Source of the DNA: an uncultured Methanoregulaceae archaeon
Lineage (GTDB): Archaea; Halobacteriota; Methanomicrobia; Methanomicrobiales; Methanospirillaceae
Direction of reading: 5' to 3'
DNA: 64,000 nucleotides
NCBI GenBank assembly: GCA_963701095.1
Contig: OY969564.1
Coordinates: 768,001-832,000, forward strand
In this document: positions 30,001 to 36,000 of the stretch, piece after piece
Layout of the letters: each line of letters opens with the position of its first letter
Position numbering within the stretch: the stretch's first letter is position 1
Made by a program: the position numbers

Positions 30001-33000
30001 GTTTCCTGCCACGATGATATTACCGCATGGCTGCAACCTGATTGGCTCTACGATACCAATCAGCAGACGTTTTCCTTTCGGTCCGGACAACGCCCTGAAA
30101 TCAAGGTTGACGTGTTCGACGCCCACCGGAACGCCGGACTTTGGAACGTTTTTGGGAAGTATCACTATCTGAATACGGGCATCAAGAGAGGCACCGATAT
30201 TTTCATTGGCTGTATCAATAACGCCCCGGTCGCCTTCTGTGCCGTCCGGCATTTCCCTCATCCCAAGAATCCCCGGATCAAGATGGTGCACCGGCTGGTT
30301 GTCCTGCCGGACTACCAGGGCATCGGTATCGGTACCCGGTTCCTGGGCTTTGTTGCTGAGTTGTACACTAAAAGGCAGTTTACCGTCCACCTCGTTACTT
30401 CTCAGGTGTCGCTCATCAATTCCCTCAAAAAACACGGCTGGCACTTGGTTCATTACGGCCATTTAGCGAAAGTGAAGGGCGGCATGGAGCACCTGAAAAA
30501 GACCAACAGTAACCGCAGGATTACCGCGTCGTTTAAGTATGCCGGGAGATCGGTGTGACCACAAAGAAATCTCCCACGGATATCAAAAAATATGGCCGGA
30601 AAAAGATACCGGTGCATGCTTGACGTTCATTTTCAAGAGCATGAGTAAAGAGATGGTCATCGCCGAAGCCGCCCGGGTCATGCTCGCCATTGAAAAGAAT
30701 ACCAGTTTGTCCCTTATCATCGAACCCTGCCCGGATTCGGATCGAGAAGGGTGGTGGCAGGTGCGGGAATGCCCGATATTTCCTATACCCCGGTACAAAT
30801 CCAAACCACACCGGAAAAGCGAGCGGAAGGTGTGGCGGGATGTGGGCCGGCCGAGACTTCGCCCGACCGTTTAAAAAATAGGGGAATGAGCTCTTGCAGA
30901 AATCCTCAAAAAAGCACTATGCCTCCCTTATAATCTTCGATAAATACATCTCCCCATTTATTGAAGAAAAAAAGTTTACTTCCCGTTCTTCCGGTACAGG
31001 AAAATCGCACCGCCCAAGGGGATTCTGTCAAGTTGTCAGTAGGTCTGAAATTTTTTACTTCGATGAAAAGTCACAAGCTGCCGAAGACTTGACAGAACCC
31101 AATGTGTTAACAAATCATTAAAGAAAAGTGTCATATTCGATAGATATATATATAAATGACAAATATTAACGATAGCTGATTTTAATGAGCGACAATGATA
31201 CTAATGGTGGATTAATTCCTCCCGGCAGCGTTGAAGGGAACGCAGTGCAAGCCCTGCTCAATATCCTGAACAGTGCCACTTCACCGGAAATCCTGCAAGC
31301 TCAGGCAATTATGCTGCGGCGATTGGCCCTGGATGGCGATGTGGTCGCCTCGCGCATTCCGGCTCCACTGAACATTACGGAGATCGGCGGTTACATCAAC
31401 TTGGTCACGACCTTGGGAATGAATGACACCCGCACGCAGATGATCGCCAGCGTTCTGGGTGTTGCCGGTCCGAGCCAAGCATTGGGCTGGCTGCCGTCCC
31501 AGCCGACTCTGAGCTGGATCTCTATGCCCAACGACCGCCCCAGTGGACCGCTCCAGGGGACTCTTCCGGTCTCCTTTAGCATCCGGAGCGATTTCGAGCC
31601 TTCGATCTCACTTGCGCTCCAGGGAATACATGACCGCGGTTGTGCATTACCAATTCTTGCACCCACGCCCGCCCTTCCACCCTCGGGCTCCCCGCCTCCC
31701 ACGGATTTGTTGCCCCTGATCGGGCGCTCGCTCATGCTGGCGCCAACTATGGCGCTGGTGAACCCGGATTCGGATCCCCTCGCAGTGGCCCAGCTTCCGG
31801 GAGGCATTTGGCAGGTGGTATGCCGATGTTTGAGTGCCGGCCCTATAGGAGTTAATCCGGCAAATTGGTCGGCACTCGTAGGCAACTCAACCTCCTGCAC
31901 GGTATCCCCAGCGCCTGCTACGGGACGGCAGTACGTTCCTGTCGCCCCAATCTTGGCCAGTGCGGGTTTCGTACCAGCTTCTGTTGGCTACCAGCCCAAA
32001 TCGATAGCAGACTACACGTGGACCCGGTTCAACAACATCTCCGGCTTGGTCCCTGGAGTCACGACTTTCGGAAGCGAATTGACCCTTCTGTATTCCCCGT
32101 CAGTCATCGCCACTTCCAGCCTTGCTGGCATGGTAAGTTATCTGTGGAATGGAACGACTTTCGCAAGCCAATAGGGGGCACGTTGCAATCAAGCCAGACT
32201 TCAAAAGGTGAAAACGATATGGCCTTATATCCTGGAGCACAATGGCGCGGCCCTGTTCCGAATCAGACTACTGATGGCATGACTGGTTATATGTTCGTGG
32301 TCTTGCACATCATGGAGGGCACCTTAAAGGGAACGGACGCGTGGTTTCATGACGCCACGTCAAAGGTTTCTGCACATTTCGGCGTTGGTAAGGATGGCAC
32401 AGTTTACCAGTGGGTGGACACCAGGGATGAAGCCTGGGCCCAAGCTGGTGGCAACCCCGTGGGCATTTCCATCCAACACGAGGGGTCAGTGCCTGATGGC
32501 TTGACTCCCCAGCAAATCGCCGCCGATGGTAAGCTGCTGGCATGGATCTTCAGCACTCATGGAACTCCATTACAGATCACCGATGACCCGGTTCAAGGCA
32601 CCGGCATCATCGGGCATTCCGACGGGGGCGCTGCCTGGGGTGGCGACTCGCTCTGTCCCGGCACAAACATCATGGGGCAGCGGCAGGCCATGATCGATGC
32701 GGCTGCGCCACAAGTGTCCGTTGTCTCCCCTTCCCTAGGTCTGCCGGGGGGCGGAACAGCGGTCACCGTCACAGGCACAGGCTTCACCGGTGCCACGAGC
32801 ATAGCTTTTGGAACGGCCGGCGCATCCAATATGGTCGTGGTTTCCGACTATGAGATCACCGCAGTGAGCCCTGCGGGAAGTGGTACGGTCGACGTACGCA
32901 TCACGGGTCCTACAGGAATGAGCCCTGTTACATTATCGGACAAGTTCATCTACAGCACCGGCACTCCAACCATTACCAGCGTAAGCCCGTCCTCGGGTGA

Positions 33001-36000
33001 TTTACACGGGGGAACAATCGTCGTCATAACCGGCAGTGGCTTGGCACTGGTCTCAGAGCTGACCTTCGGTTCGACCCCCTGCATCACCTTTAATGTCGAC
33101 AGCGACACCCAGATCACGGCTCTGACCCCACCCGGCACCGGATCCGTGATGCTCGGCTTCACTACTCCCACCGTATGTGGCACATCCGGAACGCTTACCT
33201 TTATCTATACTCCTTCCGTGGCACTACCGCAGATCACCTCGGTCACGCCAATCACCGGAAGCACGGACGGAGGTACTTCGGTTGTCATCACGGGAAGTGG
33301 CTTCACGGGAGTCGTGGCGCTCTCCTTCGGCGCGATTCCCGCGGGGAGCTTCATCATTAATAACGATACCCAGATCACCGCCACGAGCCCCGCGTCCGCG
33401 GCTGGCACCGTTGATCTGTCGGTCACGGGGCTATCTGGCACCTCCACGGCCAGTCAAATGGATCGCTTCACCTTCGAGCCCCCGCCACCTGCCGTCACTT
33501 CAGTCGCTCCTAACTCCGGACAGCAGGCCGGAGGTATAATTGTCACAGTCACCGGCAGCGGCTTCACTGGCGCGACATCGGTAGACTTCGGAGCAGTTGA
33601 TGCACCTGCTTTCACCGTGGCAACTGATAAGCTGATCACCGTCACGTCCCCCGCTGGCTCGGGGACAGTCGACGTCACGGTCATTGGTCCATCGGGTATA
33701 TCGGCAACCAGTGCCGTCGACCAGTTCACCTACATGGCTGCCCACTCAACGCCCGTCATCCAAAGCATCAACCCTGCAACAGGAAATGCGGGCACAAGCA
33801 TCGTGATCACCGGCAGCGGTTTTACGGGTGCGACAGAAGTGAATTTCGGGAGCATAGCTGCGACTTCCTTCACCGTGGATTCGGATGCGCAGATCACTGC
33901 CACCTGCCCCATCGGTGCCAGCACCGTTAATGTGACCGTAACCACGCCCTTCGGTCACTCCACGACCAACGTAGCGGACCTGTTCTCCTACGTATGATCC
34001 CAGACGTATAACTGTGAAAAAAATAACAGGCAAATCAGATGGAAGTATTCTTATGACGAAAAAAAATGAAAATGTAAATTTGTCCACCTCGTCGAACACA
34101 AGCTCGACTGCGGCTAGAGTTGTCCCTAAACTCAACCTACAGCGCATTCCGCTCACGGTTGATCCCCTTGGCCAGCAAGGTGCTTCCCTGGCGAGTACCT
34201 TGCAGCCCTTCCGAATCGCTGCCCAAAGCAAAATTTTCCTGGGGTTTAATCAGATTCAATCGAATCTCGGGAATATCATATCCCTCCTGGCCCAGCCGAC
34301 CATCCCAACCACCCTAACAGGAGTTCTGCTCCAACCGGACGGATCCCTTGCGGTCTCGGTGCAATTACAGTTCGATCCCCAGTCTTATGGCAGTAGCGCT
34401 CAACCTGTGACGACGATCACCGGCGGGCAGGGGGATTTCACCCTGAACGTTCCATCCGGCCTAGCCCTTCCTGCCAGTGGTATCGTACTCACCGCTCATG
34501 GGGCCAACAACAACGCGCAGGTTACGATCCAGGCTCCGCAGATCGCTGCCAATGGGGTGGTAGGTTCCATTTCCCTGCCTGTGCTGCTGCAGGCGCTGCC
34601 GGTTTCCATTCTGCAGTCTCTTCAAAACATCACATCTGGTCCGGGTGTACAGACATCCCCGGCGACTGTTCCCGACCCGGGAGTGTTGCCCACACTGAAG
34701 TTGGGGGAAGCCGGGACCAACGACCTGATCATTCGTGCATATCAGGGCGTTGACAAATATCCATACGGCGTATTCTTCCGCTTGGTCGAACCGCAATTAA
34801 GTATCGTCCAGCAGATCGATCGGGTCGTAGGGGCCAACAACAACTCGTTCTATCCCATGCCGGTGTACAACACCCAGACCGATACCGCCAGTTCCCAGAC
34901 AACGGACTACATCGACCGTATCCCCGTCGAGCAACCTCTGTCGGCAGATGGATTCCGGGAAAGCCTGATGGGTCTTGGCAGTGACGGCCTCTTCGTCGGG
35001 GATGAAACAGTGCCAATGGCCGGCACCCTTGGCCTCGGCTACGTGCTTTGGATGTCCCAACAATGGAATTATCGCGGCATCGGCCTTGGAAACCTGGTGT
35101 ATTCCCTGCCCCTGGCGCCGGGAGAACAGCAGCAGATCGCTGTCTTCGAGCGTGTAGACACAGCGGGGGTGTCAGAGAGCGAATCTCTGACCGACGAACA
35201 AACCCAAGAACAACAGGCGCTCGCTGACACATCCACGGCAGCGACCTTCAATTCTGCCTTCAACGAAGCTGCCAGCGGCGGCAGCGCCTTCGCTACTAAG
35301 TCGGATACCTCGAGCTCTGGCTTTAGCATCCTGATCGCGAGCGGCGGGGGCGGTAGCTCCAGCTCGAGCGGATCCAGTCAGCTCCTGGCTTCAGGGACAG
35401 CGAGACAGCGCGCAACAGGCCGCCGAAGCGACACACTCATCAGCAGAGAACCAAGCGTCAGCCCGTCGCACCGCAGCCCGCACCGGCATACGCTTGGCAA
35501 CCGCGAGCGAGAGCGAGTCCGTTACCACCCGAACGATCACCAACCACAATCATGGCCATGCTCTGACGCTCCAGTATTGGGAAGTACAGCGTCTCTACGA
35601 TGTGTCCACGGCTATTGACGGACTCACCCTGGTATGTTTGGTGCCGATGCAGATCGTCCGCTTCATGTCGCCCGGCCAGCCATTGACGATCACCGATCCT
35701 TCCATGGTGTCGTCCCGTACTGACGTACTGACGCGCTACAGCGAGATCATCAAGCATATTGATGTCCTGAAAGTGGCGCTTCCGCGCGTCTTCCAGCCCG
35801 GACTCAACCTGCTTCACCAATTCGCGGCAGATCCTACGGCTAATGTCGAATCCAGCGGCGGTGTGGCCGAGGATGTCATCAACTTTATCCTTACCGGAAC
35901 TTTCGTTCCCTGTGAGGATATTTCTATCACGGCAGTCACGGACAGAAATACCCGAGTCGGACCGGCTCAATTGAGCCCCCAGCAATCCAATTTTACCATT

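Follow-up and report, generated by a model that had tools for sequence, protein, structure and literature searches.

The window, as we call the whole 64,000-nt stretch analyzed here, carries the relevant portion of a head–tail provirus whose host is a Methanoregula-type methanogen; the host's mcrA gene is present, and McrA falls into a 90%-identity cluster with members named Methanoregula sp. Between the ParB and ABC-ATPase/GNAT genes on one side and the small and large terminase genes (TerS and TerL) on the other lies g854 (Table 1). Translation and Pfam confirm it as the provirus-borne Amidase_2 and five-TIG protein that the genome-wide survey's note had described, and its GC content (0.588, against 0.481 for the genome) and position likewise agree with that description. 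A GGTGA motif precedes the ATG, and the start is supported by the same Met opening all aligned homologs. In PHROGs, g854 matches the endolysin family phrog_1493 (E 6e-21).

Table 1. Features of the insertion and its flanks, with positions counted along the window.
Feature	Position	Strand	Basis
ABC-ATPase/GNAT gene (phrog_11143), last conserved virus gene before the insertion	29482–30558	+	Pfam and PHROG
Left junction repeat, GNAT 3' end/TerS 5' region	30528–30569	+	86% over 42 nt to 39430–39471; three-way alignment with L162
ORF111, 111 aa	30539–30874	+	Translation; homolog in L163
159-nt direct repeat bracketing the module, left copy	30749–30906	+	82% identical to 37806–37963, E 2e-39
AT-rich leader of the module	30907–31184	+	Sequence reading
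g853, constant small partner, 329 aa	31185–32174	+	Always next to the large gene
g854, Amidase_2 head and five TIG repeats, 592 aa	32219–33997	+	ORF translation, Pfam, PHROGs, homologs
Amidase_2 domain of g854, residues 26–148	32294–32662	+	Pfam E 2.4e-19, model 7–130 of 131
Five TIG/IPT repeats of g854, residues about 164–584	32708–33970	+	Pfam, 5 stretches, E 5.5e-49
Constant large partner, one gene of about 1,189 aa (g855+g856)	34014–37584	+	Short-read contigs, single-protein homologs, collinearity
159-nt direct repeat, right copy	37806–37963	+	Match to 30749–30906
Right junction repeat, directly at the TerS start	39430–39471	+	Comparison with left copy; three-way alignment with L162
Small terminase (TerS), first conserved virus gene past the insertion	39457–39921	+	phrog_309, E 9e-46; 53% identical to L162 TerS

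The homolog classes given in the survey's note were reproduced: 30 proteins, including Amidase_2+TIG proteins at 65–71% identity, Streptomyces "peptidoglycan-binding protein" entries at 54–58% to the head, and GH25+Amidase_2 proteins at 51%. The closest characterized relatives of the head are annotated Streptomyces phage endolysins (43–47%). The view of g854 as a homolog of bacterial or actinophage-type murein amidases, in a host with no known murein wall, stands, as does its rarity. It is the one Amidase_2 protein of its own genome and unique among the 107 genus genomes searched; a query with the amidase head matched none of 102 other genus genomes and one of 400 other genomes of the order, weakly (4e-12). 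No PG-binding domain was found in g854.

An alignment of the head with 71 relatives (72 sequences in all) shows that the zinc ligands are kept: H30 and H133, present in all 72, and C146, present in 71. The survey was therefore right that the ligands are there, but its numbering (H142 and C155) was wrong. Its description of the domain as complete does not hold for the catalytic residues. Q86 (codon 32474–32476) replaces a Glu found in 71 of the 72 sequences, and D143 (codon 32645–32647) replaces a His found in 66, g854 being the sole sequence with Q or D at the respective position. These are its only deviations at the 36 columns with at least 90% conservation, and 31 of the 72 relatives deviate as often or more. 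E86 and H143 are each kept in nine of ten close TIG-fused relatives, and no read differences are listed at either codon in runs X1–X3. Q86 aligns with the single Glu of XlyA and with residue 116 of the AmpD chain, which we take to be the catalytic Glu. Parts of a preprint (10.1101/2025.01.22.634383) describe an Amidase_2 mechanism relying on the Glu that ends β5 and on a His or Lys beside the third zinc ligand. H143 would probably fill the latter role, although it lies three residues before C146, not two. Given the loss of the Glu and the neighboring His from an intact zinc site, we would expect the g854 head to be a binder of murein-type ligands or an enzyme of altered chemistry, rather than an efficient N-acetylmuramoyl-L-alanine amidase. 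Two residues beyond Q86, the same strand retains E88, and an acid could come from D143; a rearranged form of catalysis may persist.

Of the large neighbors that the survey had listed, g853 is indeed separate, but g855 and g856 are one gene, split by an assembly error: the extra base at 35379 is missing from the short-read contigs of all three covering runs (X1, X2, and X3). In both Ralstonia and Novosphingobium, a single ORF runs collinear with the restored gene, and homologs of g856 (n = 591) are mostly single proteins of 1,150–1,190 aa with 60–77% identity; those with a name are all bacterial, from at least six phyla. In a 47-row tree, the window's copy of the large protein is nested among bacterial rows. 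The module's closest homologs (P0307, P0308, P0003, and P0009) could themselves be archaeal or viral. One of 400 other genomes of the order (G339, Methanomicrobiales) encodes a large protein, at 50% identity and elsewhere in the tree. Homologs of g853 show 60% identity in Ralstonia, 41% in Novosphingobium, 39% in Ruegeria, and 45% in G339, with the large gene adjoining each time. For the function of either partner, Pfam (even at E 10), PHROGs, PADLOC, NCBIfam, a PDB profile search, and Atlas returned no match.

Bacterial genes for the large and small proteins always lie side by side as a highly conserved pair on mobile DNA, both on plasmids and next to tail genes of prophages. Full-length matches to the large protein occur in seven PLSDB records (three Ralstonia, two Novosphingobium, and two Ruegeria), and g853 homologs occur in exactly those seven, immediately downstream of the large gene. 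What varies is the hydrolase next to the pair, which can be Amidase_2, M64, neprosin, or probably M14, with a similar TIG tail on all of these heads except neprosin. The gene order is large, g853-like, Peptidase_M64+TIGx6 in Ralstonia and neprosin, large, g853-like in Novosphingobium and in an Eremiobacterota-class genome (G567), while a further genome (G449) encodes a fusion of TIG with a g853-like protein. P0019, an M14+TIG protein, and P0307, the closest of the large proteins, each come from a JGI contig of 29,649 bp and are, judging solely by this equal length, probably adjacent. An Amidase_2+TIG gene adjoining the pair was seen in this window only; the DNA of two TIG-bearing Amidase_2 relatives (L002 and L082) has no large/g853-like pair nearby. 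The neprosin and M64 heads of the family are not murein enzymes.

The survey's note had likened the TIG repeats to those of Methanoregula surface proteins and taken them to replace a wall-binding module, neither of which is borne out. The host genome encodes at least ten TIG proteins, and these align to the g854 tail with 112–193 bits (42–56% identity), whereas the five best hydrolase-fused bacterial tails score 284–334 bits (50–60%). Bacterial M14+TIG and M64+TIG tails are 56–60% identical to it, and lower-scoring hydrolase-TIG tails reach 268 bits (P0009) and 125 bits (P0121). The tail belongs to a bacterial hydrolase+TIG family with the conserved pair alongside, in which the head (Amidase_2, M14, or M64) is the variable part.

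An insertion of 8.9 kb, with the module inside it, separates the GNAT gene from the small-terminase gene; it is bracketed by the paired junction repeats and 159-nt repeats. The nearest relative among viral contigs, L162, has a GNAT homolog of 84% identity, and there TerS follows GNAT across a 42-nt gap at an uninterrupted junction. A homolog of ORF111 (83% identical) lies after a terminase module in another viral contig (L163). The AT-rich leader includes the stretch TATATATAAA, which ends 27 nt before the g853 ATG and is a possible archaeal TATA box. Module genes occur in none of 80 related viral loci, a related provirus of the genus (in G232) lacks g854, and the large protein was found neither in 50,697 phage records nor in two IMG/VR scans. 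The GC3 of the module (0.63–0.67) is within the range of the virus core genes (0.53–0.79); hence, either the capture was not recent or the donor was of similar composition. The same provirus also contains several low-GC islands with defense-type genes.

This placement bears on the survey's proposal of a retargeted virus lysin, in which the two active-site substitutions, together with the TIG tail, would suit the enzyme to an envelope amide bond of Methanoregula, cleaved during egress or entry. Only the copy in the archaeal provirus has the active-site changes, the host has TIG proteins of its own, and g854 sits just upstream of the terminase, as lysis genes do in lambdoid phages. As the survey stated, no lysis gene is named for the virus Blf4, and the main text of that paper has no occurrence of endolysin, lysin, holin, or amidase (PMC8540584). 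We nevertheless consider a retargeted lysin highly improbable: the insertion that holds g854 is missing from the closest viral relative, the gene from all 80 related loci and the G232 provirus, the partner genes form a bacterial-type module, the tail is nearer to bacterial tails than to host proteins, and the operon contains no membrane protein or holin-like gene. Another egress model, through sheath-like proteins, is proposed for Methanomicrobiales viruses in parts of PMC11576556. Being accessory-module cargo with two replaced catalytic residues, g854 is therefore probably not the lysis enzyme of the virus.

Comparison with a second strain (run X3), after dropping three sites at which all runs differ from the window, yields 21 synonymous and 6 nonsynonymous differences across the module, a synonymous excess (P = 2e-8) over the random synonymous fraction of 0.256. 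The module is under purifying selection, a signal that belongs to the module as a whole (g854 alone has three synonymous and one nonsynonymous difference). Such selection argues against a passenger with no role in the archaeon, a harmless bacterial carry-over in which the active-site changes would be the first signs of decay. The absence of the substrate from the host, the lost catalytic residues, and the rarity of the module in the order would suit a passenger, which we regard as distinctly unlikely; with the assembly error corrected, none of the three genes is broken, the head is not generally decayed compared with its relatives, and the composition fits the virus core.

The three module proteins showed neither a hydrophobic signal nor a TM segment, in keeping with the survey's report of no signal peptide and no holin nearby, and the N-termini of the bacterial module-family heads likewise showed none; nor was a contractile-sheath gene found in the genome. 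The survey's other proposal, an antibacterial weapon, retains some standing but is weakened by these absences and by the substitutions. It would require a working amidase that cleaves the MurNAc–L-Ala bond with E88 and/or D143 replacing the lost residues, set free by provirus-induced lysis of the host or through the two partner proteins, and then harmful to neighboring bacteria. Methanoregula has no murein, and a murein-free producer would be immune. We judge a working antibacterial amidase to be unlikely, even though the zinc ligands are intact with no further deviation at conserved columns, the closest characterized relatives are phage endolysins, the module is under selection, and bacteria-killing archaeal murein hydrolases are documented in parts of PMC12352652. 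Against it stand the replacement of both proposed dyad residues in this lineage only, the missing PG-binding domain, and the neprosin and M64 heads found elsewhere in the family.

The reading we favor, with evenly balanced confidence, is that g854 is part of a captured bacterial-type cargo module, kept under purifying selection in a Methanoregula head–tail provirus, and is not the virus's lysin. According to this cargo model, g854 would be the hydrolase-type subunit of an operon-like three-gene module with g853 and the 1,189-aa protein, a module of bacterial distribution that was presumably captured and that occupies a variable position between GNAT and TerS. The lack of signal peptides and membrane segments suggests that the three proteins act jointly as a soluble complex, which may serve in microbial or mobile-element conflict, either inside the cell or after the virus has opened it, and which we do not think to be virus egress machinery. 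Overall, the survey's interpretation is partly supported.

Compared with known systems, g854 resembles the Amidase_2+PG_binding_1 "peptidoglycan-binding protein" type of Streptomyces and the Amidase_2 endolysins of actinophages in head identity (54–58% and 43–47%, respectively), zinc ligands, and the N-terminal position of the domain. Unlike them, it has no PG-binding domain, has the Glu and neighboring His replaced, occurs in a host without murein, and belongs to a three-gene module rather than a lysis cassette; among the 72 aligned head sequences, 12 have PG_binding_1, two PG_binding_3, one LysM, and only two TIG. Known non-catalytic peptidoglycan-recognition proteins (PGRPs) keep the Amidase_2/PGRP fold for binding and have lost catalysis and a zinc ligand, whereas g854 keeps its zinc ligands and changes the Glu/His pair. 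We know of no pseudomurein in Methanomicrobiales. The pseudomurein endoisopeptidases (Pei), which parts of PMC12596118 present as the known wall-degrading enzymes of methanogen head–tail viruses, attack pseudomurein, belong to an unrelated type of enzyme, and are a conserved part of virus lysis function, whereas g854 is cargo. With the bacteria-killing archaeal peptidoglycan hydrolases described in parts of PMC12352652, and with the Aciduliprofundum GH25 muramidase cited there, g854 shares bacterial-type homology, horizontal acquisition, and actinobacterial affinity. By definition, those hydrolases combine a catalytic domain with a known PG-binding domain, and signal peptides occur in 32% of them; g854 has neither PG-binding domain nor signal peptide and is provirus-borne, with partner genes and a substituted catalytic pair. 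The main text of that paper has no occurrence of Amidase_2, Methanoregula, or viral. No known defense family in PADLOC matches the module. It is like prophage morons and cargo hotspots in forming a self-contained block between conserved virus genes, with its own AT-rich leader, flanking repeats, and absence from close relatives; it differs from the low-GC islands of the same provirus in having the GC content of the virus core.

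The open reading frame of g854 encodes a 592-residue protein, starts at an ATG with a GGTGA motif eight bases upstream, and has an initiator methionine that is common to all aligned homologs. Pfam assigns residues 26 to 148 to Amidase_2 (PF01510; model positions 7 to 130 of 131; 70.4 bits against a curated cut-off of 26) and identifies five TIG repeats, and PHROGs matches the protein to the endolysin family phrog_1493. Its 30 homologs include about ten Amidase_2–TIG proteins at 65 to 71% identity, with Streptomyces proteins next at 54 to 58%. The host carries mcrA, and its McrA clusters at 90% with proteins that bear the name Methanoregula sp.; to our knowledge, the wall of a Methanoregula-type host lacks murein. 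Amidase_2 occurs once in this 2.63-Mb single-contig genome, and a query with the amidase head matched 0 of 102 other genomes of the genus and 1 of 400 others of the order. The genes around g854 are those of a head-tail provirus, with the ParB-like and acetyltransferase genes on one side and the terminase genes on the other. The genome-wide survey's note had described a provirus-borne Amidase_2–TIG protein that is rare among its kin and placed between these genes, and its frame, domains, homologs, rarity and setting were all reproduced here.

Features of the provirus and of the insert that carries g854, in window coordinates
Feature	Position	Strand	Remark
Integrase	18708		Provirus gene
Bro-N and DUF1064 genes			Provirus genes
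Low-GC island	24951-27286		Inside provirus
ParB-like gene	28859		Provirus gene
ABC-ATPase/GNAT gene	29482		Provirus gene
Junction repeat, first copy	30528-30569		86% identical to second copy
159-nt repeat, first copy	30749-30906		82% identical to second copy
g854	32219-33997	+	Open frame, 592 codons
Large gene (g855+g856)	34014-37584		About 1,189 codons, extra base removed
Tandem duplication	37344-37406		Perfect, 30 nt, period 33
159-nt repeat, second copy	37806-37963		Brackets module with first copy
71-aa ORF	38081-38296	-	Two predicted membrane segments
MazE-like gene	38463-38729		Adjoins 71-aa ORF
YCII-like gene	38891-39217		Adjoins 71-aa ORF
Junction repeat, second copy	39430-39471		At other end of insert
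TerS	39457		Provirus gene
TerL	39918		Provirus gene
Mu-like portal	41290		Provirus gene
Low-GC island	45826-50884		Inside provirus
Head decoration and major capsid proteins	52381-53753		Provirus genes
PKD-repeat gene	54301-57249	-	982 aa

In the closest viral relative (L162), whose GNAT and ParB proteins are 84% and 73% identical to those of the window, TerS starts 42 nt past GNAT, against a distance of 8.9 kb between them in the window. Both ends of this insert carry a junction repeat that aligns with the uninterrupted L162 junction. Within it, the module formed by g853, g854 and the large gene is bracketed by a 159-nt repeat that corresponds to the 3' end of a small gene following the terminase module in another viral relative (L163). 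Among 80 loci kept from 175 IMG/VR relatives of the ABC-ATPase/GNAT protein, 76 also hold the ParB-like gene and none holds g853, g854 or the large gene. The module is also absent from the related provirus of a second genome of the genus (G232), which has TerS, TerL, connector and tail genes in common with the window provirus. The module is cargo in this provirus. The leader in front of it is AT-rich, has a TATA-like stretch 27 nt ahead of the ATG of g853 and may act as a promoter for the module; the window contains no tRNA, and hence no tRNA attachment site was seen. In L163 (7636-9640), a GNAT gene whose product is 85% identical is followed directly by a different TerS/TerL pair and then by a homolog of the small gene ORF111, which makes the GNAT–terminase junction a hotspot of recombination among these viruses.

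Several islands of cargo appear to be carried by the provirus. Its two low-GC islands (GC 0.30 to 0.33, except for a Cas4-like PD-(D/E)XK nuclease gene at 0.47) hold genes of defense type, which also include those for GmrSD-N and RiboL-PSP HEPN proteins, a GGDEF/Cas10-palm protein, a reverse transcriptase and nitrilase pair and an HslV/proteasome-like protein. The PKD-repeat gene (GC 0.41), which separates the capsid genes from the gene for the head-tail connector, is probably another insertion.

Within the module, g854 is separated by 44 nt from g853 upstream and by 16 nt from the large gene that follows it. As assembled, g855 and g856 are overlapping genes in two different frames, and they had been counted as separate unknown proteins. 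The base at 35379 is missing from the short-read contigs of X1, X2 and X3, all three runs that cover it (X1 may be the source run; X2 and X3 are further runs), and deleting it shifts the g855 frame into that of g856, so that the two are one large gene split by an extra base. A pseudogene or a programmed frameshift was rejected, since three short-read assemblies lack this base. The contigs of all three covering runs also differ from the window by two substitutions in g854 codon 580 (33956-33957) and by one intergenic substitution (34011). For a genome assembled as one contig of 2.6 Mb, the reported completeness is only 86%, and tail genes immediately past the end of the window also look split; together with base 35379, this makes frequent indel errors in the assembly probable. 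The tandem duplication lies in the large gene, in its Ser/Gly-rich tail, and is polymorphic in repeat number, as one X2 contig skips 33 nt there.

The large gene and g853 recur together elsewhere. Full-length matches to the large protein are found in seven records of a plasmid collection, and g853 homologs occur in exactly the same seven, directly downstream. On a Ralstonia megaplasmid, the large gene (62 to 68% identity) is followed by a g853-like gene (60%), a gene for a Peptidase_M64 protein with six TIG repeats and then P2-type tail-fibre genes; the window order (g853, hydrolase–TIG, large) is a cyclic permutation of this arrangement. A neprosin peptidase gene, the large gene and a g853-like gene follow one another on a Novosphingobium plasmid, where they lie beside IS21, and in a genome of the Eremiobacterota class (G567). 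In another genome of that class (G449), the large gene is followed by a fusion of TIG and g853-like sequence and then by a gene for a PDZ protein, and a Ruegeria plasmid holds the large and g853-like pair alone. The closest large protein (P0307, 77%) and an M14 protein bearing six TIG repeats (P0019) appear to share one JGI contig, which is 29,649 bp long. A second Methanomicrobiales genome (G339) contains the pair at 50% (large) and 45% (g853) on a contig with a transposase. The neighbors of g854 are its partners and not bystanders. In the G449 fusion (contig C3; L159 8407-9669, minus strand), the N-terminal TIG repeat of the g853-type protein is 53% identical to a g854 repeat, which links TIG tails to the small partner.

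Homologs of the large protein number 591, most of them 1,150 to 1,190 aa long and 60 to 77% identical, and span at least six bacterial phyla. Those with names are all bacterial (Ralstonia, Nocardioides, Novosphingobium, Terriglobia, Nitrospira, Gemmatimonadaceae, Vulcanimicrobiaceae, Dormibacteraeota, Caulobacteraceae and Rhodanobacter). In a 47-row tree made by a quick method, the window protein nests among rows of which every named one is bacterial (support 97 to 100). The G339 protein sits on a long branch elsewhere in this tree, which would suggest two independent entries into Methanomicrobiales, although this long-branch placement is unsafe. No Pfam domain was found in any of the 591 homologs; at E values up to 10, Pfam returned nothing for the window g853 and large proteins or for P0307, and for the large protein of G339 a single stray match (E 0.12). 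Searched as a profile against the PDB, the large protein had its best match at E 0.42, and NCBIfam matched neither it nor g853. PADLOC-DB 2.0 assigned no family to g853, g854, either half of the large protein or P0307, placing none of the module proteins in its defense systems. Atlas searches returned only unnamed bacterial clusters for P0307 and no usable match for g853, and a literature search for a module with neprosin, M64, M14 or amidase yielded nothing relevant. The large protein occurs in 0 of 50,697 phage records and in neither of two IMG/VR scans, and five bacterial genomes with amidase relatives all lack it.

Two further observations concern its distribution. A Haladaptatus plasmid (NZ_CP119783.1; L154 6198-10271) encodes a 1,357-aa haloarchaeal protein that is 26% identical to g856 residues 285 to 583 and ends in DUF2272; in this different archaeal lineage, it may represent a remote version of the large protein that has undergone fusion. 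P0397 and P0414, the large proteins of a Gemmatimonadaceae and a Rhodanobacter metagenome-assembled genome, are near-identical sisters on branches of 0.10 and 0.06, which indicates recent transfer between phyla.

The TIG tail of g854 (residues 160 to 592 as query) is of the type found in such modules. It scores 334 bits against an Amidase_2–TIG protein (P0003), 304 and 301 bits against two M14–TIG proteins (P0033 and P0019; 57 to 60% identity over 346 aa), 285 bits against an M64–TIG protein (P0032), and 284 bits against the Ralstonia M64–TIG protein (56% over 347 aa); a Bradyrhizobium TIG protein without a hydrolase head (P0016) gives 287 bits. Host TIG proteins reach only 112 to 193 bits at 42 to 56% identity. 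The earlier proposal of a swap to Methanoregula-like repeats, and with it a host origin of the tail, was rejected on this comparison, the tail being closer to those of bacterial hydrolases. These scores indicate that the enzyme head, and not the tail, is the variable part of the protein family. Similar tails were found in 7 of 50,697 phage records, all as partial matches.

We aligned the amidase head with 71 representative relatives drawn from the best 150 of 4,426 matches, giving 72 rows. All three zinc ligands expected of an Amidase_2 domain (His, His and Cys or Asp) are kept in g854: H30, which aligns with the XlyA His, and H133 are present in every row, and C146 in 71. Position 86 is Glu in 71 rows and Gln in g854 alone; position 143 is His in 66 rows and Asp in g854 alone, where it is followed by Ser144. 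Q86 and D143 are the only deviations of g854 at the 36 columns that are at least 90% conserved. Two or more such deviations occur in 31 of the 72 rows, so that g854 is no outlier in number; two random deviations would fall on exactly this pair with a chance of 1 in 630, a post-hoc figure. The ten close TIG-fused relatives retain E86 in nine cases and H143 in nine, and no read differences are listed at codons 86 and 143 in X1 to X3. E88, two residues past Q86 on the same strand face, is kept. Position 86 aligns with the single Glu of XlyA and with AmpD chain residue 116, a glutamate that we take to be catalytic; a literature search on this residue found nothing useful. In the mechanism summarized in a preprint (10.1101/2025.01.22.634383), zinc is bound through two His ligands and one Asp, a Glu sits at the C terminus of β5, and a His or Lys that stabilizes the transition state precedes the third ligand by two residues. 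The equivalence of H143 to this His/Lys is presumed rather than exact, because it lies three residues, not two, before C146. We read Q86/D143 as a directed change in which the zinc site and fold are kept and the classical catalytic pair is replaced, making ordinary amidase activity (cleavage of MurNAc-L-Ala) doubtful as judged from sequence. The Amidase_2 domain had been described previously as complete, with its zinc ligands present; its coverage and ligands stand, and it lacks the Glu and the His expected of the catalytic pair.

This substitution bears on both functions that the genome-wide survey's note had offered. The first was that of a lysin of a Methanomicrobiales virus. The Blf4 paper names no lysis gene, as that note observed; the lysins known from methanogen viruses are the Pei enzymes (PMC12596118). 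For Methanomicrobiales viruses, the accessible part of PMC11576556 presents an egress model with sheath-like proteins and reports Methanoregula to be without sheath proteins. Conservation at a lysis or late position is lacking in the related loci and in the G232 provirus, and a hydropathy scan found no signal or transmembrane segment in any module protein, in keeping with the earlier remark that no signal peptide or holin lies nearby. The 71-aa ORF on the opposite strand (GC 0.35), the one small ORF nearby with two predicted membrane segments, lies in the same insert but outside the module and has a holin-like topology. As cargo that close viral relatives lack, with an altered catalytic pair, g854 is very improbable as a virus lysin. 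As an antibacterial weapon of the archaeon, it would have precedent in the bacteria-killing archaeal murein hydrolases documented in PMC12352652, the available main text of which mentions neither Amidase_2 nor Methanoregula nor viruses. This weakened rival is rather unlikely, however, given the substituted pair and the lack of an export route; the bacterial neprosin and M64 heads likewise show no hydrophobic signal or membrane segment at their N-termini, and the genome contains no PG_binding_1, GH25 or contractile sheath gene.

A third possibility, that the module is a harmless passenger, is countered by its pattern of substitution. One X3 contig spans the whole 6.4-kb stretch with 30 substitutions relative to the window. 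Excluding the three sites that differ in all three runs, which are probably window errors, the coding differences comprise 21 synonymous and 6 nonsynonymous changes (random synonymous expectation 25.6%; binomial P 2e-8); g854 alone contributes 3 and 1, too few to judge by itself. The module is maintained under purifying selection as a whole, and the passenger reading is accordingly improbable. Its GC3 (0.63 to 0.67) lies within the range of the virus core (0.53 to 0.79), bearing out the virus-like composition noted before, and is unlike that of the host (0.46 to 0.54) and of the low-GC islands (0.19 to 0.28, with one small ORF at 0.40). X5, a run that belongs to a different study, covers g853 and the large gene in part but not the body of g854.

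We conclude that the unusual gene g854 most plausibly encodes one subunit of a three-gene module of bacterial type that the provirus captured, and that methanogen virology should not take it for the missing lysis enzyme of Methanomicrobiales viruses, because close relatives lack this cargo and its catalytic pair is altered. The module has features typical of mobile conflict systems, namely swappable hydrolase heads, mobile-element locations and a discordant phylogeny. The analysis exposes a very conserved, uncharacterized two-protein core, present across bacterial phyla and in two Methanomicrobiales genomes, that is carried by plasmids and by an archaeal provirus and also found next to tail genes of prophages, with interchangeable partner hydrolases. 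Conflict systems are characterized by the swapping of effectors on mobile DNA, which makes this core a concrete candidate for a new one. Tentatively, it is possible, if less than probable, that a new mobile conflict system, widespread in bacteria and having crossed into archaea at least twice, is made up of the large protein, its g853-type partner and an exchangeable head (Amidase_2, M14, M64 or neprosin, often with a shared TIG tail), and that the paired Glu/His change re-tooled the provirus head, with its zinc site kept, for a new activity or a binding-only role suited to a murein-free host. The natural Q86/D143 double change, in a zinc amidase conserved in other respects, offers a clean test case for distinguishing a binding module from new chemistry after entry into a wall-less domain. 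In this architecture, g854 differs from the archaeal murein hydrolases, for which the available text of PMC12352652 requires a PG-binding domain by definition in addition to the catalytic one: it consists only of Amidase_2 and TIG repeats.
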